From NCBI GenBank assembly GCA_045531285.1, contig JAZSDT010000083.1, positions 1 through 60,841 on the forward strand: a DNA stretch of 60,841 bases, given 5' to 3'. Of this stretch, positions 12,663-40,279 are shown piece by piece. Under the pieces are notes generated by a model. That model worked only from the letters and a program-made list of their open reading frames with translations, did no database searches and was not told where the DNA came from. Position 1 is the first letter of the stretch, and each line of letters opens with the position of its first letter. Position numbers and translations under genes: made by a program. Source of the DNA: Eubacteriales bacterium (lineage in GTDB: Bacteria > Bacillota > Clostridia > Oscillospirales > SIG627).

Positions 12663-12738
12663 GGGGGTTTAGCTCAGCTGGGAGAGCATCTGCCTTACAA
12701 GCAGAGGGTCACAGGTTCGAGCCCTGTAGTCCCCACCA
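12663..12738 (+). tRNA. tRNA-Val (anticodon UAC), CCA encoded
   Basis: Cloverleaf read by hand: acceptor GGGGGTT/AGTCCCC, D arm GCTCAGCTGGGAGAGC, anticodon loop CTTACAA, T arm ACAGGTTCGAGCCCTGT, 3' ACCA. Confidence 0.95.
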
Positions 12739-24394: not shown

Positions 24395-24423
24395 TTGACA
24401 AAATCAAAAAACGATGCTATAGT
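24395..24423 (+). promoter_or_regulatory. Sigma-A promoter of T-box leader 1
   Basis: TTGACA (24395-24400), 17-nt spacer, TATAGT (24418-24423). Confidence 0.7.
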
Positions 24424-24429
24424 GTATTC

Positions 24430-24705
24430 ATCGAAATATTTAAAGGCTGTGACGAAGACGGTTTTGTCAGGCATTTTACAGAGAGTTGACGTTTGGTGCG
24501 AGTCAATATTTGACCTACAAGGTAACCTATCACTTCCGAGCCGGAATGCTGAACGTATTCAAGTAAGTGTTCCCGTGATTGCTGCGTAAATGCATAGGAA
24601 TTGTTTGATTCCAAGAGTGGCAGGTCTCCTGCAATTTGAGTGGTACCGCGGATGAGTTAATTTCACCCGTCTCAAAGAAAAAGCTTTGAGACGGGTTTAT
24701 TTTTT
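24430..24705 (+). promoter_or_regulatory. T-box riboswitch leader 1, specifier read as AUC (Ile)
   Basis: Stem I with AGAGA bulge and GUUUGGUG distal loop. Specifier loop ...CCU AUC A|CUUC (24529-24531). T-box sequence UUGAGUGGUACCGCGG (about 24636-24651). Terminator CCCGTCTCAAAG/CTTTGAGACGGG (24666-24695) plus T-run. Confidence 0.85.
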
Positions 24706-24722
24706 ACAAGGAGGAACAGAAA

Positions 24723-26987
24723 ATGTCAACAACTTCAAAAACAAAACTTCTGGAGGTAGCGCGCCGAATTCGTGAAATGCGTGAAATCGAAGGAATAAGC
24801 ATTGAAGAAATGGCAGAAAAGACAGAAGTATCTGTCCAGGATTATCTCGAATACGAAGCAGGAAATGCGGATTTCCCCTTCTCCTTTATACACAAATGCT
24901 CACTTGTTTTCGATATTGAAATTACAGATATTCTCGAAGGTAAGAGTGCTAACCTCCGTTCCTATACCATCACACGTAAGGGCGAAGGACAGGACACGGC
25001 AAAGGAAAACGGCATACAGATTCAGAGTCTTGCTCCCAAGTTCAAGGATAAAATAGCTGAGCCGTATTGGGTAAAGTACGAATACGACTCCGAGCTCCAG
25101 GACAAGCCAATAAACGTTACGACACACTCGGGACAGGAATTTGACTACGTGGTGAGCGGACGCCTCAAGATCCAGGTAGGCGACAACATCGAATATCTCA
25201 GCGAAGGCGACAGCATTTACTACAACAGCTCGGAGCCTCACGGCATGATTGCGGTTGACGGTAAGGAGTGTCTCTTTGTCGCAGTAGTACTTCCCGGTGA
25301 AGCAACCGAGGAAACGACTGTCAGAAAGACAATTTCGGCATCGAGTGCAAAATCAGGTCTTGTCAGTGAAAAATTCATCAAATGCGTTGAGGACGAAAAC
25401 GGTTCTCTTGTTTCCATTGACTTTGAAAACGAGGATAAATTCAATTTCGGCTTTGACGTTGTTGATGCAATTGCCAAGAAGGATCCCGGCAAGCTGGCAA
25501 TGATACACATAGACAAAAACAAGGTTGAAAGAAAGTTCACCTTCAACGATATAAAGCGTCATTCAGCTCAGGCGGCAAACTACTTCAAGTCACTTGGCAT
25601 CAAGAAGGGTGACAGAGTAATGCTGGTGCTCAAGCGCCACTATCAGTTCTGGTTTGCCATTGTGGCTCTCCACAAGCTTGGTGCTGTAGCTATCCCTGCT
25701 ACGAATCTGCTTGTAGCTCACGACTTTGATTACCGCTTTAACGCGGCGGGAGTTTCCGCAATCGTCTGCAGCGCCGACGGTCAGATAGCAGAACAGGTAG
25801 ATATTGCTCAGGCGGCAAGCCCCACTCTCAAGACAAAGATACTCGTAGGCGGCAAGAGAGACGGCTGGCACGACTTTGACGAGGAATATTCACTCTTCTC
25901 AACTCACTACTACAGGACCGAAGAAACCGCTTGCGGAGACGATATGATGCTGATGTTCTTCACATCCGGTACAACGGGTTATCCCAAAATTGCGGCTCAT
26001 TCCTACAAATACGCGCTTGGTCACTATCCCACGGCAAAATACTGGCATATGGTAGAGCCTGACGGACTCCACTTTACCATTTCGGACACAGGCTGGGGCA
26101 AGGCTCTCTGGGGCAAGCTCTACGGCCAGTGGCTGTGTGAGGGTGCTGTATTTACATATGACTTCGACCGCTTTGATGCATCGGAGATACTTCCCATGTT
26201 TGCAAAGTACAACATCAAGACCTTCTGTGCTCCGCCCACTATGCTCCGTATGATGATAAAGGAGGACATCTCAAAGTACGACCTTTCATCCGTAAAGCAT
26301 ATGACAACTGCAGGCGAAGCGCTTAATCCCGAGGTTTACTATCAGTTTGAAAAGCTCACGGGACTTCAGATAATGGAGGGCTTTGGTCAGACAGAGCTTA
26401 CTCTCGCCATCGCAAACCTTGTAGGACGTGACCACAAGGTAGGCTCTATGGGACGTCCCGTACCCCTTTATGACGTTGAGATACTTGACTCCGACGGAAA
26501 GCCGGTGCCCAACGGTGAAAACGGAGAAATCTGTGTAAAGATAGGCGACAAGGTTCCTTGCGGTCTCTTCCTTGGTTACTACGGAAACGAGGAAAAGACA
26601 AAGGAGGTCATGCACGACGGTTACTATCATACAGGCGACGTTGCATGGCGCGACGAGGACGGCTTCTTCTGGTACGTTGGAAGAACGGATGACGTTATCA
26701 AATCATCCGGCTACCGTATCGGTCCATTCGAGATAGAAAGCGTAATTATGGAGCTTCCCTACGTTCTGGAGTGCGGTGTATCTGCCGCTCCCGACGAGGT
26801 AAGAGGACAGGTTGTTAAGGCCAGCATCGTGCTTGTCAAGGGCACCGAGCCAACCGAAGAGCTTAAAAAGGAAATTCAGGAGTACGTAAAGAAACACACT
26901 GCTCCCTACAAATATCCCCGTATAGTCGTATTTAAAGATGAGCTTCCCAAGACAATAAGCGGAAAAATTCAAAGAAATAAGCTATAA
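24723..26987 (+). CDS. Fusion protein: XRE-type HTH + cupin domain + AMP-forming medium/short-chain acyl-CoA synthetase
   Basis: 754 aa. N-terminal HTH REIEGISIEEMAEKTEVSVQDYLEYEAG. Cupin HSGQEFDYVVSGRLKIQVGD...GDSIYYNSSEPHGM. Ligase motifs FFTSGTTGYPK, YHTGD, GRTDDVIKSSGYRIGPFEIE, SGKIQR. Confidence 0.85.
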   Translation: MSTTSKTKLLEVARRIREMREIEGISIEEMAEKTEVSVQDYLEYEAGNADFPFSFIHKCSLVFDIEITDILEGKSANLRSYTITRKGEGQDTAKENGIQIQSLAPKFKDKIAEPYWVKYEYDSELQDKPINVTTHSGQEFDYVVSGRLKIQVGDNIEYLSEGDSIYYNSSEPHGMIAVDGKECLFVAVVLPGEATEETTVRKTISASSAKSGLVSEKFIKCVEDENGSLVSIDFENEDKFNFGFDVVDAIAKKDPGKLAMIHIDKNKVERKFTFNDIKRHSAQAANYFKSLGIKKGDRVMLVLKRHYQFWFAIVALHKLGAVAIPATNLLVAHDFDYRFNAAGVSAIVCSADGQIAEQVDIAQAASPTLKTKILVGGKRDGWHDFDEEYSLFSTHYYRTEETACGDDMMLMFFTSGTTGYPKIAAHSYKYALGHYPTAKYWHMVEPDGLHFTISDTGWGKALWGKLYGQWLCEGAVFTYDFDRFDASEILPMFAKYNIKTFCAPPTMLRMMIKEDISKYDLSSVKHMTTAGEALNPEVYYQFEKLTGLQIMEGFGQTELTLAIANLVGRDHKVGSMGRPVPLYDVEILDSDGKPVPNGENGEICVKIGDKVPCGLFLGYYGNEEKTKEVMHDGYYHTGDVAWRDEDGFFWYVGRTDDVIKSSGYRIGPFEIESVIMELPYVLECGVSAAPDEVRGQVVKASIVLVKGTEPTEELKKEIQEYVKKHTAPYKYPRIVVFKDELPKTISGKIQRNKL

Positions 26988-27001
26988 TTTGCAAAAAAAT
27001 A

Positions 27002-27030
27002 TTGACAAACCTCATCTGATATGATATACT
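27002..27030 (+). promoter_or_regulatory. Sigma-A promoter of T-box leader 2
   Basis: TTGACA (27002-27007), 17-nt spacer, TATACT (27025-27030). Confidence 0.7.
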
Positions 27031-27034
27031 TCTT

Positions 27035-27307
27035 ATATTCAAGGAAAGGCTTTGACGAAGAGTATACCAGCACATCTATGCTCAGAGAAACGGCGTTTGG
27101 TGTAAGCCGTAGATAGACGTTGGTGTTTGTAGCTTCCGAGCCGAGAGGAAGAAAACGTTTGCCAGTAGACCCTCTCCGTGATTGCTGCGTAAATGCATAG
27201 GAATTGATTGATTCCAAGAGAGGCGGTTAGTCCGCAACTTGAGTGGTACCGCGGGCGTTGTTATTATGCTCGTCTCAAGGATCATATCTTTGGGACGAGC
27301 TTTTATT
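27035..27307 (+). promoter_or_regulatory. T-box riboswitch leader 2, specifier read as GUA (Val)
   Basis: Stem I with CAGAGA bulge and GUUUGGUG distal loop. Specifier loop ...GUUU GUA G|CUUC (27129-27131). T-box CUUGAGUGGUACCGCGG. Terminator GCTCGTCTCAA../..TTGGGACGAGC (27268-27300) plus TTTTATT. Confidence 0.85.
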
Positions 27308-27333
27308 GTCCCGATACAAAACCGGAGGAAATA

Positions 27334-29616
27334 ATGCAACAGATTACAGGTCTTGATTTTAAAATCAAGGAAATGGCAGGGCGTATACGAGAGCTTCGTG
27401 AAATCGTAGGACTTACTACCGAAGAAATGTCAAAGAAAACGGACGTATCCGTACAGGAGTACATAAGCTGTGAAAAGGGAGAAAGCGACCTTACCTTCGC
27501 TTTTATCTACCGTTGCGCTCTTGCACTCAACGTTGACGTTACGGATATTATCGAAGGTCACAGCCCTAAGCTTAAAACCTATACCGTAACAAGAAACGGG
27601 CTTGGTCAGAAAATCGAGCAGGCTCACGGTATGACGTATTACAGTCTTGCTTCCGAGTTCAAAAACAGAATTGCGGAGCCTCTTTACGTACGTGCCGCAT
27701 ACAATGACGATAACAGCGATATTGAGCTTACCACACACGCCGGTCAGGAATGTGACATTATCATTGAAGGTCACCTCAAGGTACAGGTTGGTGAGCACAC
27801 CGAGGTTCTCGGCCCGGGTGACAGTATCTACTATAACAGCTCGGAACCTCACGGTATGATTGCCGTAAACGGTCACGACTGTCTTTTCTACGCAATAGTT
27901 CTTAATCCCACAGGTGAATCCATTCCCGAGCTCATCCCCCATCCCACTGTCACTACCGAAAGACAGCTTCCCCGTGACACAGAGGATAGAGTATACCGCA
28001 ATTTCATTGATACCGAAGAGGATGAAAACGGCACACCTACTTCCATAAAATTCAAGAATACCGAAAAATTCAACTTTGCATTCGACATTGTTGATGCCAT
28101 TGCCGACAAGTCGCCCGACAAACTGGCAATGCTTCACATAGATGTAAACAAGAACGAAAGACGCTTCACTTTCAAGGATATGAAGAAGATGTCTGCTCAG
28201 GCGGCAAACTACTTCAAGTCACTTGGTATCAAGAAGGGCGACAGAGTTATGCTCGTTCTCAAGCGTCACTATCAGTTCTGGATAGCAATGCTTGGTCTTC
28301 ACAAGCTGGGTGCTATTGCGGTGCTTGCGACAAATCAGCTTCAGGAGCATGATTTTGAATATCGCTTTAATGCCGCGGGAATTTCTGCAATCCTCTGCAC
28401 AGCAGACGGAGATACAGCGCATCAGGTTGAGCTGGCAATTGAAAACTCCCCCACAATGAAAACCAAGATAATAGTTGGAAAGGACCGTGAAGGATGGCGC
28501 AACTTTGACGAGGAGCGTTCACTCTTCTCCACACATTTCAACAGAACAGAGGATACTCCCTGCGGAGACGACCTGATGTTGATGTTCTTCACGTCGGGAA
28601 CAACGGGTTATCCCAAGATTGCGGCACACTCCTGCAAGTATGCACTCGGTCATTTCCATACGGCGAAATACTGGCACACAGTTGACCCCGACGGACTTCA
28701 CTTTACCATTTCCGACACGGGATGGGCTAAGTCCATGTGGGGCAAGTTCTACGGACAGTGGGTATGCGAGGCGGCAACCTTCGTTTATGACTTTGACCGC
28801 TTTGACGCTGCCGATATTCTGCCAATGTTTGCAAAATATCAGATAACAACCTTCTGTGCTCCTCCCACAATGCTTCGTATGATGATAAAAGAGGACATTT
28901 CAAAATACGACCTCTCTTCCGTTAAGCATATGACAACAGCAGGTGAAGCACTGAACCCCGAAGTATATAACCAATTTGAAAGGCTGACAGGACTTCAGAT
29001 ACTTGAAGGCTTCGGTCAGACAGAAAGCACTATGATAATAGGCAACCTTGTAGGAACGTCACACAAGGTCGGCTCTATGGGTAAGCCTGCTCCCATTTAC
29101 GACGTGGAGCTTCTTGATGCAGACGGTAATCCCGTCAAGGACGGTGAAAACGGAGAAATCTGCGTAAACGTTAAGAACGGCGCTCCTTGCGGTCTGTTCA
29201 CGGGTTATTATCTCAACGAGGAAAAAACACGCGAGGTATGGCACGACGGATATTACCACACAGGTGACGTTGCATGGCGTGATGAGGACGGCTTCTACTG
29301 GTACGTCAGCCGTGTTGACGACGTTATCAAGTCATCGGGCTACCGTATCGGTCCTTTCGAAATAGAAAGCGTAATAATGGAGCTTCCCTACGTTCTGGAG
29401 TGCGGTGTATCTGCGGCTCCCGACGAGGTAAGAGGACAGGTAGTCAAGGCGGGCATCGTGCTTGTTAGGGGAACCGAGCCTACTGAAGAGCTTAAAAAGG
29501 AGATACAGAACTACGTTAAGAGCAGAACTGCTCCCTACAAGTATCCCAGAATCGTAGTGTTCAAGGATTCTCTTCCCAAGACTGTCAGCGGAAAGATCCA
29601 GAGGAACAAATTATAA
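27334..29616 (+). CDS. Fusion protein paralog: XRE-type HTH + cupin + AMP-forming acyl-CoA synthetase
   Basis: 760 aa from the ATG at 27334 (GGAGG RBS; the ORF-track start at 27208 lies inside the riboswitch). Same architecture and motifs as 24723..26987. The ligase part is highly similar. Confidence 0.85.
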   Translation: MQQITGLDFKIKEMAGRIRELREIVGLTTEEMSKKTDVSVQEYISCEKGESDLTFAFIYRCALALNVDVTDIIEGHSPKLKTYTVTRNGLGQKIEQAHGMTYYSLASEFKNRIAEPLYVRAAYNDDNSDIELTTHAGQECDIIIEGHLKVQVGEHTEVLGPGDSIYYNSSEPHGMIAVNGHDCLFYAIVLNPTGESIPELIPHPTVTTERQLPRDTEDRVYRNFIDTEEDENGTPTSIKFKNTEKFNFAFDIVDAIADKSPDKLAMLHIDVNKNERRFTFKDMKKMSAQAANYFKSLGIKKGDRVMLVLKRHYQFWIAMLGLHKLGAIAVLATNQLQEHDFEYRFNAAGISAILCTADGDTAHQVELAIENSPTMKTKIIVGKDREGWRNFDEERSLFSTHFNRTEDTPCGDDLMLMFFTSGTTGYPKIAAHSCKYALGHFHTAKYWHTVDPDGLHFTISDTGWAKSMWGKFYGQWVCEAATFVYDFDRFDAADILPMFAKYQITTFCAPPTMLRMMIKEDISKYDLSSVKHMTTAGEALNPEVYNQFERLTGLQILEGFGQTESTMIIGNLVGTSHKVGSMGKPAPIYDVELLDADGNPVKDGENGEICVNVKNGAPCGLFTGYYLNEEKTREVWHDGYYHTGDVAWRDEDGFYWYVSRVDDVIKSSGYRIGPFEIESVIMELPYVLECGVSAAPDEVRGQVVKAGIVLVRGTEPTEELKKEIQNYVKSRTAPYKYPRIVVFKDSLPKTVSGKIQRNKL

Positions 29617-30278
29617 TGAAATATAAAAGAATAACGCTTCTTTCAGGTCATTACGGAAGCGGAAAGACAAATATAGCGGTCAACATGGCATTTGAGCTGA
29701 AGCAACAGGTTGAAAGCGTTGTGGTTGCCGATATGGATATAGTCAATCCCTATTTTCGTACAAAGGACAGTCAAAAGGAGTTTGATGAGGCAGGAATAAA
29801 GCTTATTGCATCCGCCTTTGCAGGCTCTAACGTAGACCTGCCCTCTCTTCCCCAAGAGATGTACTCACTGACAGATGACCGCACAAGCCACTGCATACTT
29901 GATATAGGTGGTGATGAACGCGGAGCGTTGGTGCTTGGAAGATATGCGCCTATGATAAAGGAAGAAAACGATTACGAAATGCTTTTCGTTTTCAATGCCT
30001 GCCGTCCCTTGACACCGGATGCCGACTCGGCACTGGAGGTTATGAGAGAAATTGAATGGGCAGGAAAGATACCCTTCACAGGTATCATAAACAACTCAAA
30101 CATCGGAGAGGAAACAACTCCCGAGACAGTTTTGTCATCAATGGAAAAAGCAAACCAGCTGAGTCAAAAAGCCGGTATTCCATTGGTTATGACCTCGGTT
30201 CATTGGAAGATATTTCCCTCCCTTGAAAATAAAATACCAAATCTATTCCCATTAAAACTTCAAACAAAAATCATGTAA
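29616..30278 (+). CDS. P-loop NTPase (SIMIBI class; CooC/MinD/G3E-like ATP/GTP-binding protein)
   Basis: Walker A LLSGHYGSGKTN, Walker-B-like ILDIGGD. 220 aa. Start overlaps the ligase stop (TAATG). Confidence 0.6.
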   Translation: MKYKRITLLSGHYGSGKTNIAVNMAFELKQQVESVVVADMDIVNPYFRTKDSQKEFDEAGIKLIASAFAGSNVDLPSLPQEMYSLTDDRTSHCILDIGGDERGALVLGRYAPMIKEENDYEMLFVFNACRPLTPDADSALEVMREIEWAGKIPFTGIINNSNIGEETTPETVLSSMEKANQLSQKAGIPLVMTSVHWKIFPSLENKIPNLFPLKLQTKIM

Positions 30279-30290
30279 GGAGTGTAAAAA

Positions 30291-30497
30291 ATGCCTAAGC
30301 TTACTTTTAAAACAGACAACTGTAAGGGCTGTGGACTTTGCGTAGATGCTTGTCCCAAGGGCGTTCTTGCAATTGCCAAGGAAAAAATCAACAAAAAAGG
30401 TCATCACCCTGTTGAAGCGGTGAAAGAGGACGCTTGTATCGGTTGTACCTTCTGTGCTACCATGTGTCCCGACTGTATAATCAAGATTGAGAAATAG
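30291..30497 (+). CDS. 2-oxoacid:ferredoxin oxidoreductase delta subunit (2x[4Fe-4S] ferredoxin)
   Basis: CKGCGLCVDACP and CIGCTFCATMCP cluster motifs. 68 aa. Confidence 0.85.
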   Translation: MPKLTFKTDNCKGCGLCVDACPKGVLAIAKEKINKKGHHPVEAVKEDACIGCTFCATMCPDCIIKIEK

Positions 30498-30512
30498 AAA
30501 GGTCGTGAAATA

Positions 30513-31580
30513 ATGGCAGATAAAGTATTGATGAAAGGTAACGAAGCCATTGCCGAAGCCGCAATCGTTGCAGGCTGCCGCCACTACTTCGGTTACCCTA
30601 TTACTCCCCAAACTGAAATTGCCGCTTACATGGCTAAGAGAATGCCTAAAATCGGCGGTTGCTTCCTTCAGGCTGAAAGCGAAATTGCCGCTATCAACAT
30701 GGTATACGGCGTTGCTTCCTGCGGTAAGCGTGTTATGACATCATCCTCAAGCCCCGGAATCTCACTTAAGGGCGAAGGACTTTCCTACCTTGCAGGTGCG
30801 GACCTTCCCTCCCTTGTTGTAAACGTACAGAGAGGCGGCCCCGGTCTGGGCGGTATTCAGCCCTCGCAGTCAGACTACTTCCAGGCTACAAAGGGCGGAG
30901 CACACGGTGATTTCCACATGATAGTTCTTGCTCCCGCTTCCGTTCAGGAAATGGCTGACCTCACAGTTCACGGCTTTGACCTTGCAGACAAGTACCGTAT
31001 GACTTCCATGATACTTGCCGACGGTACAATGGGTCAGATGATGGAGCCTGTTTCTCTTGACCTTGACGTTAAGCCCATGCCCGAAAAGCCTTGGGCTACA
31101 GTGGGAACAAAGCTCGAAAGATTCCACAATATCACAAACTCACTTTCTCTTGTTCCCGAAGAGCTTGAACAGCTCAACTTCAAGAGATACGAGCGTTATG
31201 CTGAAATAGAAAAGAATGAAGTTATGTACGAAGAGTATATGATGGAGGATGCAGAGATCTGTATCGCCGCATTCGGCATTGCTTCACGTGTTGCCAAGAA
31301 CGCTATCGTTGAGGCTCGTGCTCAGGGTATCAAGGTAGGTCTTATACGTCCTATCACCCTTTGGCCCTTCCCCAAGGCTCCCTTCCTCAAGGCGACCGAA
31401 AAGGTACATTCATTTATTTCTGTTGAGCTTTCTATGGGTCAGATGATAGAGGACGTACGTCTTGCTACAGAGTGCCGCCGTCCCGTGACACTTGTAAACC
31501 GTGCAGGCGGTATGATCCCCTCACCCGAACAGATCCTCGAAGCAATTAAAACTGCTCACAAAAACGGAGGTGCAAAATAA
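30513..31580 (+). CDS. 2-oxoacid:ferredoxin oxidoreductase alpha subunit (VorB-like, ketoisovalerate-type)
   Basis: KVLMKGNEAIAEAAIVAGCRHYFGYPITPQTEI is the N-terminal signature of the POR/VOR/KOR alpha family. 355 aa. Confidence 0.85.
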   Translation: MADKVLMKGNEAIAEAAIVAGCRHYFGYPITPQTEIAAYMAKRMPKIGGCFLQAESEIAAINMVYGVASCGKRVMTSSSSPGISLKGEGLSYLAGADLPSLVVNVQRGGPGLGGIQPSQSDYFQATKGGAHGDFHMIVLAPASVQEMADLTVHGFDLADKYRMTSMILADGTMGQMMEPVSLDLDVKPMPEKPWATVGTKLERFHNITNSLSLVPEELEQLNFKRYERYAEIEKNEVMYEEYMMEDAEICIAAFGIASRVAKNAIVEARAQGIKVGLIRPITLWPFPKAPFLKATEKVHSFISVELSMGQMIEDVRLATECRRPVTLVNRAGGMIPSPEQILEAIKTAHKNGGAK

Positions 31581-32347
31581 TGGTAGTATTTGACAAACCC
31601 CATGCACTTGCCGACCTTCCCATGCACTACTGCCCCGGCTGTACACACGGTATTATTCACCGTCTTGTTGCCGAGTGTCTTGATGAACTTGGAATTGAAG
31701 GAAGAACCATCGGTATCGCACCCGTTGGTTGCTCGGTTATGGCATATAATTATTTCAACTGCGATATGATTGAAGCGGCTCACGGACGTGCTCCTGCCAT
31801 TGCTACAGGTGTTAAGCGTGCTGACCCCGAAAATCACATAGTATTTACATATCAGGGCGACGGTGACCTTGCCTCTATTGGTATGGCAGAAACCGTACAC
31901 GCAGCAGCGCGTAACGAGAACATCACCGTTATCTTTGTAAACAATGCAATCTACGGTATGACTGGCGGTCAGATGGCTCCTACCTCACTTCCCGGTCAGG
32001 TTACTCAGACCTCTCCCTACGGACGTGACACCAACCACTGCGGATTCCCAATCAAGGTATGCGAAATGCTCTCTGAGCTTGACGGACCTGAATATCTGGA
32101 AAGAGTTGCCGTGAACAACGTGAAGAATGTTAAGGCTGCTAAGAAGGCTATTAAGAAGGCGTTTGAAAACCAGATAAACAATAAGGGCTTCTCACTCATC
32201 GAGGTTATTTCAAGCTGTCCTACAAACTGGGGTATGACACCTCAAAAGGCACTTGAATGGGTTGCAGATAAAATGATTCCCTACTATCCTCTCGGTGTAT
32301 ATAAGGATAGAACAGCGGGCATTGTAAAGGGGGATAAAAATGACTAA
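31580..32347 (+). CDS. 2-oxoacid:ferredoxin oxidoreductase beta subunit (TPP-binding)
   Basis: YCPGCTHG, GDGD...NNAIYGMTGGQ TPP/Mg motif. Start overlaps the alpha stop. Confidence 0.85.
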   Translation: MVVFDKPHALADLPMHYCPGCTHGIIHRLVAECLDELGIEGRTIGIAPVGCSVMAYNYFNCDMIEAAHGRAPAIATGVKRADPENHIVFTYQGDGDLASIGMAETVHAAARNENITVIFVNNAIYGMTGGQMAPTSLPGQVTQTSPYGRDTNHCGFPIKVCEMLSELDGPEYLERVAVNNVKNVKAAKKAIKKAFENQINNKGFSLIEVISSCPTNWGMTPQKALEWVADKMIPYYPLGVYKDRTAGIVKGDKND

Positions 32348-32870
32348 TCAGTACGTTTTTGCAGGATTTGGCGGTCAGGGTATCCTTTTCGCAGGTAAGC
32401 TCCTTGCATACAAGGGTCTGACAGAGGACAAGCAGGTTTCATGGCTTCCCTCCTACGGTCCCGAAATGAGAGGCGGTACGGCAAGCTGTTCCGTTATCAT
32501 CAGCGACACACCTGTAGGTTCTCCCATTGTTTCCAATCCCGACATACTCATCGCTATGAACCTTCCTTCTCTTGACAAGTACGAGAATCTTGTAAAGGCA
32601 GGCGGTATGATATTCTACGATTCTTCTCTCATTGAAAGAGAAGTTAAAAGAGATGACGTAAAGGCGTTCCCCATTCCCGCAACAAAGCTTGCAGACGAGA
32701 ACGGAACTCCCACACTTGCAAACATGATAATCATGGGTAAGGTGCTCAAGGAGACAGGCGACTTCACAGACGAAGGCGTTCTTGCAGCTCTCAAGAAGGT
32801 AATTTCCGCTAAGCGTGCGGATATGCTTGACGTAAACCTTAACGCTATGAAACTTGGACGCGATTATTAA
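32340..32870 (+). CDS. 2-oxoacid:ferredoxin oxidoreductase gamma subunit
   Basis: [17 protein letters not shown]...[11 protein letters not shown] is typical of gamma subunits. 8-nt overlap with beta. Confidence 0.85.
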
Positions 32871-32886
32871 TTGGAGGCGAATTTAA

Positions 32887-33951
32887 ATGGAAATTTCAAT
32901 CACTCGCGCAAAGGAGCTCAAGGCTAAGCCTGACAGTTCCACACTTGGCTTCGGTAAAATATTCACCGACCATATGTTCATAATGGACTATTCGCAGGAG
33001 AAAGGCTGGCACGATGCAAGAATCGTTCCCTTCGGCCCCTTCCCCATTCATCCCGCATCAACCGTTCTTCACTACGGCTCGGAAATCTTTGAAGGACTCA
33101 AGGCATACAGAATCGCCGACGGCTCGGTACAGCTCTTCAGACCTATGGAGAACATCCGCCGTCTTAACAGCTCGGCTGAGCGTCTGTGTCTCCCCGAGAT
33201 TCCCGAGGACCTTGCTCTTGAGGTACTCACAAAGTTCGTTGAATTTGAAAAGGACTGGACACCTGCTGCAGAGGGTACTTCTCTCTACATCCGTCCCTTC
33301 CTCTTCGGTAACGACGAGACACTTGGTGTACACGCAGTACACAATGCAACCTTTATGATAATCCTCTCTCCTGTAGGAAGCTACTATAAGGAAGGTATTA
33401 ACCCTGTTAAGATCATGATTGAAGCTGATGACGTAAGAGCTGTAAGAGGCGGTACAGGTTACACCAAGTGCGGCGGTAACTATGCGGCAAGTAACAGAGC
33501 AGGTCAGAAGGCTGAAGCTCAGGGATACGCTCAGGTACTCTGGCTTGACGGTGTTGAAAGAAAGTATATTGAAGAAGTTGGCGCCATGAACGTTATGTTC
33601 AAAATCAACGGCGAGATCGTTACTCCCATGCTTTCAGGCTCTATCCTTCCCGGTATCACAAGAAAGTCTTGCATTGAAGTTCTCAAGTCCGAGGGCTACA
33701 AGGTAAGCGAGAGACTTCTCAGCGTTGATGAGCTTGCAGAGGCTCTTGAAAACGGAACTCTTGAAGAGGCTTGGGGAACAGGTACAGCAGCAGTTGTATC
33801 GCCCATTGGCGAGCTTGCTTACAAGGGCAAGAAGTTCATCATCAACGAAGGTAAGATCGGCGAGGTCACTCAGCATCTTTACGATACTCTCACAGGCATC
33901 CAGTGGGGTAAGATCGAAGACAAGTTCAACTGGACCTACAAGCTTAATTAA
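32887..33951 (+). CDS. ilvE: Branched-chain amino acid aminotransferase (fold type IV)
   Basis: 354 aa. FGKIFTDHMF, LHYGSEIFEGLKAYR, GGTGYTKCGGNYAAS, ILPGITR and GTAAVVSPI motifs of IlvE type II. Confidence 0.9.
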   Translation: MEISITRAKELKAKPDSSTLGFGKIFTDHMFIMDYSQEKGWHDARIVPFGPFPIHPASTVLHYGSEIFEGLKAYRIADGSVQLFRPMENIRRLNSSAERLCLPEIPEDLALEVLTKFVEFEKDWTPAAEGTSLYIRPFLFGNDETLGVHAVHNATFMIILSPVGSYYKEGINPVKIMIEADDVRAVRGGTGYTKCGGNYAASNRAGQKAEAQGYAQVLWLDGVERKYIEEVGAMNVMFKINGEIVTPMLSGSILPGITRKSCIEVLKSEGYKVSERLLSVDELAEALENGTLEEAWGTGTAAVVSPIGELAYKGKKFIINEGKIGEVTQHLYDTLTGIQWGKIEDKFNWTYKLN

Positions 33952-33968
33952 TTTATAAGCGTTTTAAA

Positions 33969-34004
33969 GGGGAGCATTCTTTTGAAATCAAAAGAATGCT
34001 CCCC
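33969..34004. terminator. Bidirectional hairpin terminator between ilvE and the convergent amidohydrolase gene
   Basis: 15-bp stem GGGGAGCATTCTTTT/AAAAGAATGCTCCCC. Confidence 0.7.
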
Positions 34005-34038
34005 CTCTACCGTTCAAGAAAGCTTGTCAGGTCATATT

Positions 34039-35148
34039 TTATAAAAATATACCTTTTTCTTTACAATCGTTAAAAATGGAAAAGCGATTTATTTCATTTG
34101 TCAACAGGCTATCATATTTCTTTATATAGGCTGAAAGCGCCTCTGTATCTATTTGACGAGGTCTTTGTCCTACACGTTTCAAAAAATTCCCGTAAAAGAT
34201 TTTATCAAGAGTGTCCTCGTCCAACGCCATTCCTTGCACATCCATTCCTGCCATTTTGAAGGAATCATCTGTCAAAAGGAATCGATAAACACAAGGTATC
34301 GAATAACCTCCTCCTCTTGTCGAATAATCGGAACCAAACATTATTCTGTCAGAATATTTGAGGAAAAACTCTCTCCAATCCGTTATGTTTTCACTCATAT
34401 AGTGAAAATTACTCGGGCCTGGTGTAATATCTATGCACACGTTAGGATAATCGTCAAGAAGCTTTTCAAGGCGTTCGCGCTGCGTTGTCATATAGAACAT
34501 ATGTGCAAACGTTACCTTAAGTCTCGGATATCGTCTTAATATTTCATAAACCTCACCGTAAACCTCTTCTCTGTCGGGATTCTCGGAATTTGCAAATTTC
34601 ACGTCATTCCAATGCTCAATCGGGTCATTTACGTGCCACAGAATATGTATTTGCTCTTCTTCGATCCTTTTAAACAGCGGTGCAAATCCCTTGTCAGTAA
34701 AAATAGCTTTCAACTCCATTTTTGCCTTTGGATGAGTTTCAAGCATTTTTACTCCGTCAAAGCCGATTTTCATCAATTCGTCAAGCTGTGTATCAGGCTC
34801 AAATCCTTTTTTAAACGGAAAGCTCACAGGTCTGTCGGGATATACAAGCCCACCATGTGCAAAAACCTTTTTGTTTTCCTCCTTCAACAGTGCAGCCATA
34901 ATATTTTGTGCAGCATCTCTGCCTATATACGGAATACACGCAATGTTGACATACTCATAGTTGCGGGAATCAATAAAAGCGTTTACCGATTCTTTATAGT
35001 TATGGGATACGGGTGCATCCTTCCAACCGAATCGTTCTATTTCCTTGAATGGAGTTATAAACTGTCGGTAGTCCTCGTGATTCAAATCCGTCGAATCCAT
35101 CCAATTTGAAATATGAATATGTGAATCTATGACCTTAATTGTCTTCAT
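34039..35148 (-). CDS. Amidohydrolase-family (metal-dependent TIM-barrel hydrolase) protein
   Basis: VIDSHIHISNW N-terminal HxH, WHVNDP, and FGSDYS near the C-terminus. 369 aa. Confidence 0.65.
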   Translation of the reverse strand: MKTIKVIDSHIHISNWMDSTDLNHEDYRQFITPFKEIERFGWKDAPVSHNYKESVNAFIDSRNYEYVNIACIPYIGRDAAQNIMAALLKEENKKVFAHGGLVYPDRPVSFPFKKGFEPDTQLDELMKIGFDGVKMLETHPKAKMELKAIFTDKGFAPLFKRIEEEQIHILWHVNDPIEHWNDVKFANSENPDREEVYGEVYEILRRYPRLKVTFAHMFYMTTQRERLEKLLDDYPNVCIDITPGPSNFHYMSENITDWREFFLKYSDRIMFGSDYSTRGGGYSIPCVYRFLLTDDSFKMAGMDVQGMALDEDTLDKIFYGNFLKRVGQRPRQIDTEALSAYIKKYDSLLTNEINRFSIFNDCKEKGIFL

Positions 35149-35373
35149 ACTTCCTCCGTATAAATCTGTTTGCAGTTATTATAACCGTATTTTGCTCATT
35201 TGTCAACTTGACAAATTCTGTAAACCGTGTTAAAATACAACCATTAATGGAGGCTCAAGCGATAAAACTTGCTCTGGCTACTAATATGTGCGACTCATGT
35301 GGGGCTATTGCCGTACGTGTGTTGTTTTGTACGTATGGCACTTGCTGTACGATTTTTATTTTGGAGAACCGAT

Positions 35374-35958
35374 ATGAATTTAAGTATTTCTTTTTTTATA
35401 ACAAGTATAATGCTGGGTGTAGGTCTTGCTATGGATGCTTTTTCGGTCTCACTTGTAGCAGGGCTAAGCGAACCTTGTATGCAACGCCGTAAAATGACGG
35501 GGGTTGCAGGAACCTTCGCCTTCTTCCAGGCACTGATGCCCATGATAGGATGGCTGTTGGTACACACGTTATTGGAATTCTTTCATTCATTTGAAAAATT
35601 CATACCTGCTATAGCATTGGTGCTTCTTGCTTACATAGGAATCAAAATGATAATTGAAGGTAAGCACTGTGAGGGAGAAGAATGTAACTGCCGTAAGCTG
35701 ACCTTATCTGCACTGTTGATACAGGGAATTGCCACGTCAATCGATGCTCTGTCGGTAGGACTTGAAATTGCAGCCTATTCCGTGCTTCAGGCACTTATAG
35801 TTGCACTTATTATCGCCGCAATTACGTTTGTTATCTGCTATGCGGGGATCATGATTGGCAAAAAGACAGGTACCTTACTTTCGGGCAAGGCAAGTATTTT
35901 CGGCGGTGTGATACTCGTTCTAATCGGAATCTATATATTCGCAAAAAGCTTTTTGTGA
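35374..35958 (+). CDS. mntP: Manganese efflux pump MntP
   Basis: Two DUF204 repeats: LGVGLAMDAFSVSLVAGL...MPMIGW and GIATSIDALSVGLEIA...IFGGVILVLIGIYIF. ATG at 35374 after a GGAGA RBS. Confidence 0.85.
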   Translation: MNLSISFFITSIMLGVGLAMDAFSVSLVAGLSEPCMQRRKMTGVAGTFAFFQALMPMIGWLLVHTLLEFFHSFEKFIPAIALVLLAYIGIKMIIEGKHCEGEECNCRKLTLSALLIQGIATSIDALSVGLEIAAYSVLQALIVALIIAAITFVICYAGIMIGKKTGTLLSGKASIFGGVILVLIGIYIFAKSFL

Positions 35959-36008
35959 TTCTGTGGCAAGGCTGATTGAAGAATTTTAGGGACAGTAGAA
36001 AAAAGTAC

Positions 36009-36037
36009 TTGACAAATCAATTTCATCGTGGTATAAT
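36009..36037 (+). promoter_or_regulatory. Sigma-A promoter of T-box leader 3
   Basis: TTGACA (36009-36014), 17-nt spacer, TATAAT (36032-36037). Confidence 0.75.
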
Positions 36038-36043
36038 CTATCA

Positions 36044-36324
36044 TCATCAAAAATAGAACGAAATGCATTGAAGGAATTATCGCTTTTCCCTATTCCGTCA
36101 AAGAGAGCCGAGTTTGGTGTGAGTCGGTACGGTAAGCTAAAGTGAGTCTCGTTCCGGAGCAGGGTCGCCCAACGTGCTATGCACTGCGTAAGCGATCACG
36201 GTTTGTCCCGTTACCTTGACAGAAAGCTTGATTGAGCTTTACAGAGTGACTGCATAAGCAGTAATTCGGGGTGGTACCGCGAAGTATTTTCGTCCCCTTA
36301 GCCGAAAGGCTGAGGGGTTTTTTG
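36044..36324 (+). promoter_or_regulatory. T-box riboswitch leader 3, specifier read as CUC (Leu)
   Basis: Stem I with AAGAGAG bulge and GUUUGGUG distal loop. Specifier loop ...GAGU CUC G|UUCC (36148-36150). T-box AUUCGGGGUGGUACCGCGAAG. Terminator CCCCTTAGCC-GAAA-GGCTGAGGGG (36294-36317) plus TTTTTT. Confidence 0.85.
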
Positions 36325-36354
36325 TTGCATAAATTCAGAAAGGGAAAAAGAAAA

Positions 36355-37743
36355 ATGAAAAAAATCCAAATCACAGACATCACACTTAAAAAACTGGCGC
36401 AAGAGCGTAGCGTTAACCTTCTTTTCCGTGACAAGACCGCTATCGCCGCATGTGCTGACAGGCTTGGAGTTGATGCTATTGAACTTGCACCCATAAAGAA
36501 CGTGCGTGAGGACACTATCATTTATAAGACAATATCCCAAAATATCACCAACTGTACCGTAGCTATCCCCGTAGGATTTACTGCTCAGGACGTTGCGACA
36601 GCATGGGAATGCGTAAAGGACGCCATTCACCCCAGACTTCAAATAGAGCTTCCCATATCCACTGTTCAAATGGAATATACCTATCATCTTAAGGCTGACA
36701 AAATGATTGCCAAGATAGGTGAGCTGGTAGAGGAAGCAGTAAAATACTGCAATGACGTTGAATTCGTTGCTCTTGACGCTACAAGAGCGGACACAGACTT
36801 CCTTGTTGCCGCAGTAAAAGAAGCAGAAACAAAGGGCGCAAATATCATAACGGTTTGCGATGATGCGGGAGTTTCTCTTCCGGAAGAAATTGCAGCACTT
36901 GTAAAGCTTGTAAAAGATGCTGTTGATATCTACGTATACGCTCAGGTATCCGACAAGCTCAGTATGGCTGTTTCCTCTGCAGTATCCGCAATCAACGCAG
37001 GTGCAGAAGGTCTCAAGTGTGCTATGGCAGGCAATGAAGCTCTTTTGGTAGGTGCTTTCTCTGACACTGTAAGAGCAAGAGGAGATGCTATCGACGTTTC
37101 TACGTCTCTTAAGGACACCAAAATTCACGCAAGCATCGATGACCTGCTTACTTCTATAAAGCACGAAGCTTATACCTCGGAAGAACAGGTAAGCGAAAAG
37201 AAAAACATTCTTCTCGATAAGGACAGCACCATATCACAGGTATCTCAGGCGGCTCAGGTATTGGGCTATGACCTTTCGGACAGCGACTGCGGAAACGTGC
37301 ACAAGGCACTTCTTCAGGTATGCGAAAAGAAGGGCTCTGTAGGATCAAAGGAGTTTGAAGCACTTATTGCAAGCTCTGCAATGCAGGCTCCCTCCACATA
37401 TCACCTTGAGGGCTACACTACAAATTCTTCAAATCTTACACCCTCTATGTCTCAAGTAACCCTCAGATGCGGTGACGAGATACTTTCAGGCGTAAGCACA
37501 GGTGACGGTCCCATCGATTCAGCCTTCCGCGCTATCGAGCAGAGTATAGGTTATCACTACGAGCTTGACGACTTCCAGGTACAGGCGGTTACAGAGGGCA
37601 AGGAGGCTCTCGGCTCTGCACTGGTAAGACTCCGTAACAACGGCAAGCTCTATTCAGGTAACGGCATCTCCACAGATATTGTTGCCGCAAGTATAAGAGC
37701 ATACATCAACGCACTTAACAAGATCGTATTCGAGGAGGAATAA
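36355..37743 (+). CDS. 2-isopropylmalate/citramalate-synthase-like protein with degenerate active site but intact LeuA-type C-terminal regulatory domain
   Basis: Collinear with LeuA over the whole length, but DTTLRDGEQ is DITLKKLAQ and the HxH metal motif (H-C-H-D-D) is AQVSD. The C-terminal STGDGPIDSAFRAIEQSI...ALVRLRNNGKLYSGNGISTDIVAASIRAYINALNK is well conserved. ATG at 36355 lies downstream of the riboswitch terminator. Confidence 0.75.
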   Translation: MKKIQITDITLKKLAQERSVNLLFRDKTAIAACADRLGVDAIELAPIKNVREDTIIYKTISQNITNCTVAIPVGFTAQDVATAWECVKDAIHPRLQIELPISTVQMEYTYHLKADKMIAKIGELVEEAVKYCNDVEFVALDATRADTDFLVAAVKEAETKGANIITVCDDAGVSLPEEIAALVKLVKDAVDIYVYAQVSDKLSMAVSSAVSAINAGAEGLKCAMAGNEALLVGAFSDTVRARGDAIDVSTSLKDTKIHASIDDLLTSIKHEAYTSEEQVSEKKNILLDKDSTISQVSQAAQVLGYDLSDSDCGNVHKALLQVCEKKGSVGSKEFEALIASSAMQAPSTYHLEGYTTNSSNLTPSMSQVTLRCGDEILSGVSTGDGPIDSAFRAIEQSIGYHYELDDFQVQAVTEGKEALGSALVRLRNNGKLYSGNGISTDIVAASIRAYINALNKIVFEEE

Positions 37744-37744: not shown

Positions 37745-40198
37745 ATGAAGCTGGTATTTTCCACCGAAAACGTAAGCAGAGCATCCTTTATTGACCTTTG
37801 CCGCTACGCTTACGATTACGGTTATTCGGGATTTGAGATATACGATGCCATAAAGGAAAGAAAACAGCATTATGACAGCATTCTCAGAAGCGGAAACACT
37901 TCGGATGCCAAACGAAAGCTGTTAAACCGTAATCTCACAGTTCCCGCTCTCACTTTCCCCTCCCCTATAGACAGTAGCGAAGTATCCTCCGAGGATATAA
38001 CAAAATATATCGACATGGCTGCAACGGCAGGTGTGGAAAACGTTATTGTATGCGTAAAAGAAGATATTTCTCACGATACCCTTTCTGCCAAGCTTAGCGA
38101 TGCACTCAAGGCTGCTGCAAAATCCGATATACAGATTTTGTTTGAAACGTGGGGCATTCTTGCTGACACGGAAAAGGTACTTGAGGTAATCAATTTCCTG
38201 TCATCCGCCTCGGTAGGCGTAGCATGGAACGTACGTGAAACCTTTTTCAAAGCAAGCGAAAGTGCCGAAACGACCATAAAAAATCTTGGCGCTTATATAA
38301 AATACACCCGTTTGGGCGATATGAAGGACAATAAGACGGTTCTCATCGGAGAAGGTGAGCTTCCTGTTGGCAATTTCATAAACGCGCTGTCATCACTGAA
38401 CTTTGACGGATGTATCTGCGTTGCATGGAACGAGGAAATAAACGATGCTGACATCGTATTAACTCATTTTTCAAACTATATTGCAAATCTCAACCGTAAG
38501 AAATTAAAAGCCGACAGCTCTTATTACAACAGAGCAAAAACAGGTACTTTCCCTTGGAAGAAATATGATATTCTCGATTATACCTTCTCGGACGTACTTG
38601 ATGCAATGGTAAAGAATTACCCCGACCAGTATGCCTTCAAGTATACGACTCTTGATTATACGAGAACCTACACCGAATTCCGCAGAGACGTTGACGAGTG
38701 TGCGGCGGCACTGATATCACTGGGCGTAAAGGCAGGCGATCACGTTGCTATTTGGGCGACAAACGTTCCTGCATGGTATATCACCTTCTGGGCAACAACA
38801 AAGATCGGCGCAGTACTTGTTACTGTCAACACAGCGTACAAAATACACGAAATAGAGTATCTGCTCAAGCAGTCTGACACTCATACTCTTGTAATGATAG
38901 AGGACTGCAAGGACATAAACTACAAGGAAATAATTGAGGAGCTCTGTCCCGAGCTTCAGCACCTTGAACCGGGTCAGCCTATTTATTCAAAGAGTCTTCC
39001 CTTCCTCCGAAACGTTGTTACCGTAGGCTTTTCAATGAAGGGCTGTCTCACTTGGGAGGAAATGCTCAAGCGTTCTGAGCTTGTTCCAAAAGAAGAGGTA
39101 CGCAGACGTGCATCTCTGGTAAATCCCGACGACGTATGCAATATGCAGTACACCTCGGGTACTACAGGCTTCCCCAAGGGAGTTATGCTTACCCATCGCA
39201 ATATCGTAAACAACGGTAAGACGATCGGAGACAGAATGGACTTGTCCACTGCCGACAGAATGATGATTCAAGTACCTATGTTCCATTGCTTCGGAATGGT
39301 GCTTTCTATGACATCTATGATGACACACGGCGGTACTCTTTGTCCTATGCCTTATTTCTCCCCCAAATCATCTCTTGCTTGTATAAACGATGAGCACATC
39401 ACCTGCTTCAACGGTGTGCCTACAATGTTTATCGCGCTGTTCAATCATTCGGATTTTGCAAAAACCGACTTCTCTTATATGAGAACGGGCATTATGGCAG
39501 GTGCCAACTGTCCTGCAGATCTTATGCGCCGTGCGGCAGACGAAATGAATATGCGTGAAATAATATCCGTTTACGGTCAGACCGAGGCATCTCCGGGATG
39601 TACGATGGGCGAAGTAAACGAGGATATCGACCACAGAGTTGAGACAGTAGGAAGCGCCTTCCCCGGAGTTGAGTGTAAAATTATTGACCCTGAGACAGGC
39701 GACGAGCTTCCCGACGGTGAATCCGGTGAGTTTGTGGCACGCGGCTTTAACATTATGAAGGGTTACTATAAGATGCCCGAGGCTACTGCACAGACTATTG
39801 ACGCAGACGGATGGCTTCATTCAGGTGACATTTGCTGCCGTACGCCCGACGGCTACTACAAGGTAACAGGACGTCTTAAGGATATGATAATCCGAGGCGG
39901 TGAAAACCTTTATCCCCGTGAAATTGAGGAGTTCTATCTTACCAATCCCAAGGTACGTGACGTACAGGTGGTAGGTGTTCCCGACGAAAGATACGGTGAA
40001 GAATGCTGTGCGTGGATAATTCTTCACAAGGGCGAGACTGCCGACGAAAACGAAATGAAGGAATACGGAAACGCTTCTATCGCACGTCACAAGGTTCCCC
40101 GTTACTTCCTGTTCGTAGATGAGTTCCCCATGAATGCGGCAGGAAAAATTCTTAAATATAAAATGAGAGATATTTCAAAAGAAAAATTAGGTCTTTAA
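37745..40198 (+). CDS. Fusion protein: xylose-isomerase-like TIM-barrel domain + AMP-forming acyl-CoA synthetase (FadD/YngI-like)
   Basis: 817 aa. The first ~260 aa have the TIM-barrel pattern (GFEIY...ILFETWG...VAWNVRE...CVAWNEE). The remainder carries YTSGTTGFPKGVMLTHRN, GQTE, HSGD, GRLKDMIIRGGENLYPREIE, AGKILK. Starts 1 nt after the upstream stop. Confidence 0.8.
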   Translation: MKLVFSTENVSRASFIDLCRYAYDYGYSGFEIYDAIKERKQHYDSILRSGNTSDAKRKLLNRNLTVPALTFPSPIDSSEVSSEDITKYIDMAATAGVENVIVCVKEDISHDTLSAKLSDALKAAAKSDIQILFETWGILADTEKVLEVINFLSSASVGVAWNVRETFFKASESAETTIKNLGAYIKYTRLGDMKDNKTVLIGEGELPVGNFINALSSLNFDGCICVAWNEEINDADIVLTHFSNYIANLNRKKLKADSSYYNRAKTGTFPWKKYDILDYTFSDVLDAMVKNYPDQYAFKYTTLDYTRTYTEFRRDVDECAAALISLGVKAGDHVAIWATNVPAWYITFWATTKIGAVLVTVNTAYKIHEIEYLLKQSDTHTLVMIEDCKDINYKEIIEELCPELQHLEPGQPIYSKSLPFLRNVVTVGFSMKGCLTWEEMLKRSELVPKEEVRRRASLVNPDDVCNMQYTSGTTGFPKGVMLTHRNIVNNGKTIGDRMDLSTADRMMIQVPMFHCFGMVLSMTSMMTHGGTLCPMPYFSPKSSLACINDEHITCFNGVPTMFIALFNHSDFAKTDFSYMRTGIMAGANCPADLMRRAADEMNMREIISVYGQTEASPGCTMGEVNEDIDHRVETVGSAFPGVECKIIDPETGDELPDGESGEFVARGFNIMKGYYKMPEATAQTIDADGWLHSGDICCRTPDGYYKVTGRLKDMIIRGGENLYPREIEEFYLTNPKVRDVQVVGVPDERYGEECCAWIILHKGETADENEMKEYGNASIARHKVPRYFLFVDEFPMNAAGKILKYKMRDISKEKLGL

Positions 40199-40240: not shown

Positions 40241-40245
40241 ACAAC

Positions 40246-40275
40246 AAAAAGCACTTCATTAATGAAGTGCTTTTT
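40246..40275. terminator. Bidirectional intrinsic terminator
   Basis: AAAAA-GCACTTCATT/AATGAAGTGC-TTTTT between convergent genes. Confidence 0.85.
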
Positions 40276-40279
40276 GTTA

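Follow-up and report, generated by a model that had tools for sequence, protein, structure and literature searches.

T-box leaders of the Rfam family RF00230 have been described in front of aminoacyl-tRNA synthetase genes (tyrS, ileS, valS and leuS of Bacillus subtilis), classical ilv/leu operons (the CUC leader of ilv-leu) and transporter genes, and for Ile, Val and Leu, such leaders normally use AUC, GUA and CUC as specifiers. Here, we analyse three T-box leaders with these specifiers on a contig from an Eubacteriales bacterium (JAZSDT010000083.1, assembly GCA_045531285.1, positions 1-60,841 of the forward strand; the whole stretch of 60,841 nt is called the window below). They have the parts of the known T-boxes, namely the GA/K-turn base, the Specifier Loop, the AG bulge, the distal loop, Stem II/IIA-B, Stem III, the UGGN bulge and a mutually exclusive terminator and antiterminator, and are ordinary canonical transcription-attenuation T-boxes. 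What sets them apart from the known T-boxes is the genes that follow, which encode acyl-CoA ligases, a 2-oxoacid:ferredoxin oxidoreductase of the VOR type (VOR), an aminotransferase and a LeuA-like protein that is probably a pseudoenzyme. Furthermore, two of the leaders stand in series on perhaps one transcript, and a C is found 3' of the specifier in many Ile-type homologues.

With respect to the proteins, the closest described relatives of two of the ligases are MbcS of Staphylococcus aureus, which is selective for 2-methylbutyrate and isobutyrate and handles isovalerate, acetate and propionate poorly (PMC10026030), and the M. acetivorans AMP-binding protein MacS. The two ligases share with these enzymes a homologous AMP-binding domain with a Gly in place of the acetate-gating Trp414 of acetyl-CoA synthetase (Acs), but they carry additional N-terminal HTH_XRE and cupin domains, score below the MbcS equivalog cut-off and belong to two paralogous clades, each with its own T-box specifier, and their operon context points to the synthesis of amino acids rather than fatty acids. 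It has been known for a long time that fibre-degrading Clostridia of the rumen and gut require or utilise "isoacids" (isobutyrate, 2-methylbutyrate and isovalerate) for Val, Ile and Leu. Rumen microbes make these amino acids from the three acids by carboxylation and amination (PMC7356843). The window resembles this pathway in its four-part oxidoreductase (delta, alpha of the VorB family, beta and gamma) beside a branched-chain aminotransferase, and most of the related loci are of metagenomic origin (rumen, hindgut and human gut). In contrast to the described pathway, the oxidoreductase is here linked genetically to specific ligases and to amino-acid-specific riboswitches, and its reductive direction is predicted. 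Lastly, the LeuA-like protein has the HMGL-like barrel and LeuA_dimer domain of LeuA, but lacks the metal and substrate ligands and is always paired with a fusion of a TIM barrel and a ligase.

T-box control of branched-acid ligases, VOR or the aminotransferase, or ligase paralogues labelled by specifiers, was not found described in the searchable full-text literature, which covers few subscription journals, so an earlier description is possible. In the same literature, the enzymes that activate branched acids are not tied to genes, and a 2008 in silico survey of T-boxes mentions no CoA enzymes or oxidoreductases (PMC2494555). Public annotation of the ligase proteins reads "AMP-binding protein" or "cupin domain-containing protein" only. 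Typical as the RNAs are, the regulon appears to be undescribed in the literature that can be searched.

Three T-box leaders and their specifiers

The leaders, their promoters and one tRNA gene of the window are as follows:

24395-24423, + strand: promoter of leader 1, TTGACA-17-TATAGT with TG-extended -10 (consensus scan)
24440-24706, + strand: T-box leader 1, specifier AUC (Ile) at 24529-24531 (Rfam match, sequence)
27002-27030, + strand: promoter of leader 2, TTGACA-17-TATACT with TG-extended -10 (consensus scan)
27043-27310, + strand: T-box leader 2, specifier GUA (Val) at 27129-27131 (Rfam E 1e-16, custom model)
36009-36037, + strand: promoter of leader 3, TTGACA-17-TATAAT with TG-extended -10 (consensus scan)
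36059-36325, + strand: T-box leader 3, specifier CUC (Leu) at 36148-36150 (Rfam match)
12663-12738, + strand: tRNA-Val(UAC), discriminator A73, CCA encoded in the gene; type of tRNA cognate to leader 2

Leaders 1 and 3 match RF00230 over the full length of the model (positions 1-219) and above its gathering score of 93 bits (24440-24677 with 94.6 bits and 36059-36300 with 102.8 bits), and leader 2 was found, again at full length, with an E-value threshold (27043-27280, 81.2 bits, E 1e-16). A custom Stem I covariance model, built on the three leaders of the window, gives leader 2 a score of 107 bits. For comparison with relatives, we queried genomes with ligases 1 and 2 aligned to close homologues and used the best 80 of at least 583 loci (L001-L080), nearly all of them from uncultured Clostridia (Acutalibacteraceae, Ruminococcaceae/Oscillospiraceae, Christensenellaceae) of the rumen, hindgut and human gut. 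With the curated Rfam model, 11 leaders in 9 related loci reach the gathering score, Val-type leaders included (L037, L005).

The original prediction, an earlier reading of this DNA, had listed an AGAGA bulge, a distal loop, the T-box sequence and a terminator before the ribosome-binding site as common to the three leaders, and all of these parts are indeed present. The distal loop reads GUUUGGUG in each leader and the T-box sequence is GUGGUACCGCG, with the copy of leader 1 at about 24640-24651. Each leader has a near-consensus promoter of its own, and terminator hairpins lie at 24665-24696, 27268-27300 and 36294-36317 in leaders 1, 2 and 3, with a U run and, after it, the ribosome-binding site downstream of each. 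The terminator regions have energies of -23.7, -29.3 and -29.6 kcal/mol, respectively, and share their 3' strand with the antiterminators. The latter have helix energies of -11.0, -15.7 and -9.2 kcal/mol and place UGGUACC in a bulge of 7 nt. The tRNA-Val(UAC) gene, to which the GUA of leader 2 had been matched, was confirmed; its 3' end (...CCCCA-CCA) consists of the discriminator A, a base able to pair with the first letter of the UGGU bulge, and the encoded CCA. A weak Rfam match to caiA (24662-24725) overlaps a terminator hairpin and was dismissed as chance, as was a match to antisense_SR1 (33967-34102; 29.6 bits, gathering score 45) for the same reason.

The specifiers had been predicted from their position next to a short helix in Stem I, and alignment to the T-box covariance model puts all three at the same coordinates: the specifier columns of the model (consensus "uuc a" just 5' of "CCcu") hold AUC-A, GUA-G and CUC-G in leaders 1, 2 and 3. 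The sequences that come next, CUUC, CUUC and UUCC, pair with GAAG, GAAG and GGAA on the 5' side, so that the predicted helices are paired in the model, and they covary in homologues. We searched the window and the 80 loci with the Stem I model and obtained 153 matches, 150 of which were aligned; all 150 are followed by a T-box motif with UGGU 84-177 nt downstream. In these leaders, the 4-bp specifier helix occurs as GAAG/CTTC, GAAA/TTTC, GGAG/CTCC, GGAA/TTCC, GATA/TATC, GTGG/CCAC, GAGG/CCTC and GGGG/CCCC. The helix is paired in 100% of the homologues, with compensatory changes in three of its four pairs, and 99.1% of the cells of all modelled Stem I pairs are paired, with compensatory double changes in 11 of 12 pairs, in an alignment that favours pairing as it was fitted to the covariance model. 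None of 500 shuffles reached the observed value for Stem I, and slid controls did not come close either.

The specifier column itself reads ATC in 68, GTA in 57, GTC in 6, CTC in 18 and GCA in one of the 150 leaders, while the bases that flank it vary. A second, independent scan of metagenome contigs, this time with LeuA-like proteins as query, yielded 56 leaders located before a LeuA-like gene, a count that includes leader 3 of the window. Their triplets are CTC (51), CTG (3), CTA (1) and GTC (1), i.e., a Leu codon in 55 of 56. Within each type, the triplet thus varies only synonymously (GUA/GUC for Val; CUC/CUG/CUA for Leu), which is the behaviour expected of a specifier. The base after a T-box specifier is usually described as a conserved purine, and the original prediction had relied on this. 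The rule holds for the leaders of the window (A, G and G), but in the alignment of L001-L080 a large share of the Ile-type leaders (ATC-C) and some Leu-type leaders have a C at this position.

This variation bears on the register, since the base after ATC can be A, C or G and the triplet shifted by one is therefore always a Ser codon (UCN) in Ile-type leaders. If the register were off by one, Ile- and Leu-type leaders would read UCN. The same shift, however, turns the specifiers of the homologous Val-type leaders into the stop codons TAG or TAA and those of the Leu-type leaders (CTC/CTG/CTA) into an inconsistent set of TCN, TGN and TAN; moreover, it leaves no spacer base before the helix. For the Ile type, only three arguments exclude the shifted register: the homology to Val- and Leu-type leaders, the register of the covariance model, which is identical in all three, and the branched-chain-specific genes downstream. 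Taken together, we consider a shifted register extremely unlikely.

Leaders 1 and 2 have a near-identical segment of approximately 50 nt, covering Stem II/IIA-B and the linker (24575-24625 and 27178-27228), that holds a small extra hairpin (GGAAUUG.UUGAUUCC) absent from the Rfam consensus. Recent gene conversion between the two leaders was considered as its origin and ruled out, as the segment is conserved across species in both Ile- and Val-type leaders. This conservation rather points to shared ancestry plus constraint. The duplicated unit was therefore a cassette of leader and ligase, in which the specifier was altered later.

Two loci are unusual in having a second T-box directly before the P-loop/VOR genes in the absence of a Val-type ligase (L041:9324-9438 and L066:9315-9428). 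The specifier column of the one in L041 is GCA, not a Val codon, and this T-box may be a decaying or repurposed leader.

Ligase paralogues behind the Ile and Val leaders

Leaders 1 and 2 are followed by these genes:

24723-26987, + strand: ligase 1, HTH_XRE, Cupin_2, AMP-binding and AMP-binding_C domains, 754 aa (Pfam)
27334-29616, + strand: ligase 2, HTH-cupin-AMP paralogue with 70% identity to ligase 1, 760 aa (Pfam)
29616-30278, + strand: ParA/MinD-like P-loop NTPase, 220 aa, Walker A GHYGSGKT (weak Pfam CbiA/ParA matches, synteny)
30291-30497, + strand: 2x[4Fe-4S] ferredoxin, delta-type oxidoreductase subunit (family searches)
30513-31580, + strand: 2-oxoacid:ferredoxin oxidoreductase alpha, VorB family (NF005507, Pfam)
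31580-32347, + strand: 2-oxoacid:ferredoxin oxidoreductase beta (Pfam)
32340-32870, + strand: 2-oxoacid:ferredoxin oxidoreductase gamma (Pfam)
32887-33951, + strand: branched-chain amino acid aminotransferase, IlvE type (NF009897)

A different acyl-CoA ligase had been proposed to lie behind each leader. It follows directly in the case of leaders 1 and 2, while ligase 3 is only the second gene behind leader 3, after the gene of the LeuA-like protein. The one-to-one pairing of specifier and ligase, also part of the original prediction, was found to extend to about 80 other species. All 68 ATC leaders of the 80 loci precede a ligase-1-type gene, and all 49 GTA or GTC leaders with a full-length ligase downstream precede a ligase-2-type gene. 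Likewise, a midpoint-rooted neighbour-joining tree of the 117 full-length ligases located behind a T-box contains exactly two clades, one with the 68 ATC-preceded and one with the 49 GTN-preceded proteins. The Ile and Val ligases are thus sister clades, each tied to its own T-box specifier, and their separation persists in many clostridial families. The amino-acid class of the specifiers agrees with the genes downstream, namely a branched-chain aminotransferase and VorB behind the Val leader and a LeuA regulatory domain behind the Leu leader.

The prediction of substrate-specialised ligases is not proven by our data, but it gained support from the kinship to MacS and MbcS, from a Gly/Ala split in the acyl pocket, and from the presence of VOR and an aminotransferase in the Val operon. 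The closest solved structure for the ligase domain is that of MacS (3ETC, E 2.5e-182), an enzyme that reportedly prefers 2-methylbutyrate, and the best NCBIfam model for both ligases is MbcS of S. aureus. We mapped the acyl pocket by alignment with E. coli Acs, taking as reference the four residues within 4 Å of the acetyl group in Salmonella Acs, V310, T311, V386 and W414 (PMC8511477). The W414 position is Gly in all three ligases of the window (in FGQTE), the V386 position is Ala and the T311 position is Lys. In contrast, the V310 position differs between ligase 1 (Gly459) and ligase 2 (Ala465), and it is Gly in 68 of 68 Ile-type and Ala in 49 of 49 Val-type ligases. Systematic differences between the clades are also seen at positions 462 (Leu vs. 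Met) and 561 (Leu vs. Met/Val). The smaller Gly could make the pocket of the Ile-type enzymes roomier, which would fit the extra carbon of 2-methylbutyrate. We predict that ligase 1 is a 2-methylbutyrate-CoA ligase and ligase 2 an isobutyrate-CoA ligase.

Positions that discriminate the two clades are rare in the ligase domains (4 of 420 in the N-domain and 0 of 99 in the C-domain, i.e., 1% and 0%) and more frequent in the HTH (9%) and cupin (8%) domains; 10 of the 13 strict positions fall within the N-terminal HTH-cupin module. This module of HTH_XRE and Cupin_2 (~235 residues; 24723-25430 and 27334-28040) has the architecture of small-molecule-sensing regulators. Comparison of the region with the PDB returned generic SinR/DdrO HTH domains only and gave no functional lead.

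Downstream of the ligase, most ligase-2-type units go on with genes for the P-loop NTPase, the ferredoxin, VOR and the aminotransferase, and where a locus is long enough, the ligase is nearly always coupled to VOR and the aminotransferase. The VOR alpha subunit of the window scores 536 bits with NF005507 (VorB), above the cut-off of 399. For beta, gamma and delta, the matches are to generic 2-oxoacid:ferredoxin oxidoreductase families and stay below the equivalog cut-offs. The aminotransferase scores 482 bits with NF009897, above the cut-off of 307. In related loci extending far enough, the P-loop NTPase gene sits between ligase 2 (or the branched-chain aminotransferase) and the ferredoxin/VOR genes. 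No NCBIfam model matches the NTPase, and in the PDB it resembles CFD1 and MinD in the Walker A region alone; it might help to mature the Fe-S enzyme. Two related loci (L044 and L063) have a single Ile-type ligase ahead of VOR. In the window, the consensus scan detected no terminator between ligase 1 and leader 2 (26987-27043), and the promoter of leader 2 starts 15 bases after ligase 1. Transcripts from promoter 1 would therefore run into the second T-box.

The Leu operon

The operon of leader 3 comprises the following features:

36355-37743, + strand: LeuA-like protein, HMGL-like barrel and LeuA_dimer (Pfam, motif comparison)
37745-40198, + strand: ligase 3, xylose-isomerase-like TIM barrel and AMP-binding domain, 817 aa (Pfam)
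40243-40278: terminator after ligase 3 (consensus scan)

This pair of genes is as constant as the units described above. All 18 CTC leaders of the 80 loci precede a LeuA-like gene and a TIM-barrel ligase gene, and the same is true of every CTC, CTG or CTA leader behind which a gene could be recognised. In the HMGL-like family, the metal and substrate ligands reside in the RDGEQ and HxH motifs. When compared to LeuA of Listeria and Neisseria, the LeuA-like protein has KKLAQ in place of RDGEQ and QVSDK in place of HxHxD, and both the RDGEQ and the HxH motif are lost in 18 of 18 homologues. The best isopropylmalate synthase model gives 246 bits against a cut-off of 532, and the protein is below every such cut-off. 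The C-terminal LeuA_dimer domain, on the other hand, is recognised by PF08502 with 106 bits, and among the homologues this regulatory domain is nearly invariant, with invariant columns concentrated in residues 383-457. Judged by this pattern, the LeuA-like protein is probably a pseudoenzyme, acting as a leucine sensor or as a partner to the TIM-barrel ligase encoded next to it.

Among AMP-binding proteins, ligase 3 falls into another subfamily than ligases 1 and 2. Its best matches in the PDB are a fatty-acyl/feruloyl-CoA synthetase and a malonyl-CoA synthetase, and its best NCBIfam match, PRK12583, is below the cut-off. The TIM barrel matched only MJ1311 in the PDB (E 0.004) and provided no functional lead. 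By analogy with the other two units, ligase 3 may be an isovalerate-CoA ligase, a suggestion that is pure inference; the poor activity of MbcS on isovalerate fits with an unrelated ligase being found behind the Leu switch. In many related genomes, the Leu unit lies directly adjacent to, or is divergent from, the Ile unit.

A proposed salvage route and its alternatives

We propose that Ile, Val and Leu control, via T-boxes, the activation of 2-methylbutyrate, isobutyrate and isovalerate, which would be followed by reductive carboxylation and transamination, and we regard this as the likely function of the three operons in this gut bacterium. Uncharged tRNA-Ile(GAU), tRNA-Val(UAC) and tRNA-Leu(GAG) would bind AUC, GUA and CUC by specifier-anticodon pairing, and the free ACCA end of each tRNA would bind the UGGU bulge, stabilise the antiterminator over the stronger terminator and allow transcription to proceed. 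The AMP-forming ligase would then turn an exogenous branched short-chain acid into its CoA thioester (ATP to AMP), VOR would use reduced ferredoxin and CO2 for reductive carboxylation of the acyl-CoA to the 2-oxoacid, and the branched-chain aminotransferase would convert the latter to the amino acid. Ligase 1, under the Ile switch, would prefer 2-methylbutyrate; ligase 2, under the Val switch and co-transcribed with VOR and the aminotransferase, isobutyrate; and ligase 3, under the Leu switch and co-transcribed with the presumably catalytically dead LeuA-like protein, isovalerate. One VOR and one aminotransferase would presumably serve all three branches. As T-boxes are on when the cognate tRNA is uncharged, they fit with a biosynthetic direction, which we infer from this logic and from the practical irreversibility of AMP-forming ligases.

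Several observations weigh against this proposal. Leader 2, with its 81.2 bits, is under the Rfam gathering score, and genes for tRNA-Ile(GAU) and tRNA-Leu(GAG) were not found in the window. Ligases 1 and 2 score 437 and 431 bits, far under the MbcS equivalog cut-off of 850, and since MbcS accepts both 2-methylbutyrate and isobutyrate, the specificities of the two ligases may overlap. Ligase 3 lacks a characterised close relative, and its isovalerate assignment comes from the Leu specifier and from analogy only. In the window, VOR and the aminotransferase (30291-33951) stand behind the Val leader only, which leaves their rise under limitation for Ile or Leu alone unaccounted for. Finally, among the LeuA-like loci whose upstream region is long enough, about a dozen have no T-box within 450 nt.

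The overlap in substrates of MbcS leads to a possible, albeit rather unlikely, alternative, in which ligases 1 and 2 are both broad synthetases for alpha-branched short-chain acyl-CoAs, the duplication only puts one activity under two amino-acid signals, and any specialisation resides in the HTH-cupin module. The scarcity of clade-discriminating positions in the ligase domains as compared to the 8-9% in HTH and cupin would be in line with this, and only one of the four mapped Acs pocket positions differs between the clades. That one difference, however, is invariant, it has the direction that the substrates predict, with the smaller side chain going with the larger C5 acid, and it is accompanied by the systematic changes at the nearby positions 462 and 561; furthermore, the two clades have been maintained separately across many Clostridia families. 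Doubts of a similar kind apply to ligase 3. The Leu operon could carry out another leucine-related reaction than isovalerate activation, e.g., with a different acid or with a 2-oxoacid or hydroxy-acid intermediate, given that ligase 3 is of a different subfamily with the best matches named above, that it bears an unexplained xylose-isomerase-like barrel, and that we found no direct evidence on its substrate. We nevertheless consider this unlikely, because MbcS-type enzymes are poor on isovalerate and a different enzyme is therefore expected, because the Gly of ligase 3 at the position of Acs Trp414 is consistent with an acid larger than acetate, and because the Leu operon frequently adjoins Ile/Val units and is preceded by a Leu codon in nearly all of the metagenome leaders.

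A further alternative concerns the fate of the acyl-CoAs rather than their identity. As has been proposed for MbcS in S. aureus, they might mainly serve as primers for the synthesis of branched-chain fatty acids, and hence of membrane lipids, under scarcity of those amino acids from which the primers are normally derived. MbcS is the closest named family and feeds fatty-acid synthesis, and neither ligase 1 nor the ligase 3 operon comes with an oxidoreductase or aminotransferase of its own. Opposed to this are the Val operon, which joins the ligase to VOR and the aminotransferase in nearly all loci extending far enough, the nature of T-boxes as sensors of tRNA charging and not of lipid status, and the LeuA regulatory domain encoded in the Leu operon, and we find a primarily lipid-directed role very unlikely.

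Returning to the salvage route, it is conceivable that each ligase carries or recruits a sensor of its own end product, namely the HTH-cupin module, rich in clade-specific residues, in the Ile and Val enzymes and, in the Leu operon, a dead LeuA of which just the leucine-binding regulatory domain would still function. The same amino acid would then exert dual control, on transcription through tRNA charging and on the proteins through allosteric or DNA-binding feedback, and a duplicated cassette of T-box and ligase would be the origin of the system, with specifier, pocket and sensor co-evolving. We put this forward tentatively, as a reasonable but rather unlikely idea.

In a wider context, the specifiers serve as built-in labels: in several hundred species-level genomes at least, they link each of the three amino acids to a ligase paralogue of its own and, presumably, to its own acid. 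They yield candidate genes for the long-known rumen pathway together with testable predictions of gene and substrate, including a single Gly/Ala switch in the pocket, and are of relevance for isoacid feed supplementation, gut cross-feeding and the prediction of amino-acid auxotrophy from genomes. The Ile and Val units also offer a clean natural case of a T-box and gene cassette duplicated with a change of specifier.

As for the remainder of the window, a fourth AMP-binding ligase (48012-49730, - strand, 572 aa) is ~26-30% identical to the others, has no T-box and is, as far as examined, unrelated to the system. The region between the Val and Leu units contains an open reading frame of 369 aa on the - strand (34039-35148) and a membrane protein gene on the + strand (35269-35958), whose translation looks MntP-like.

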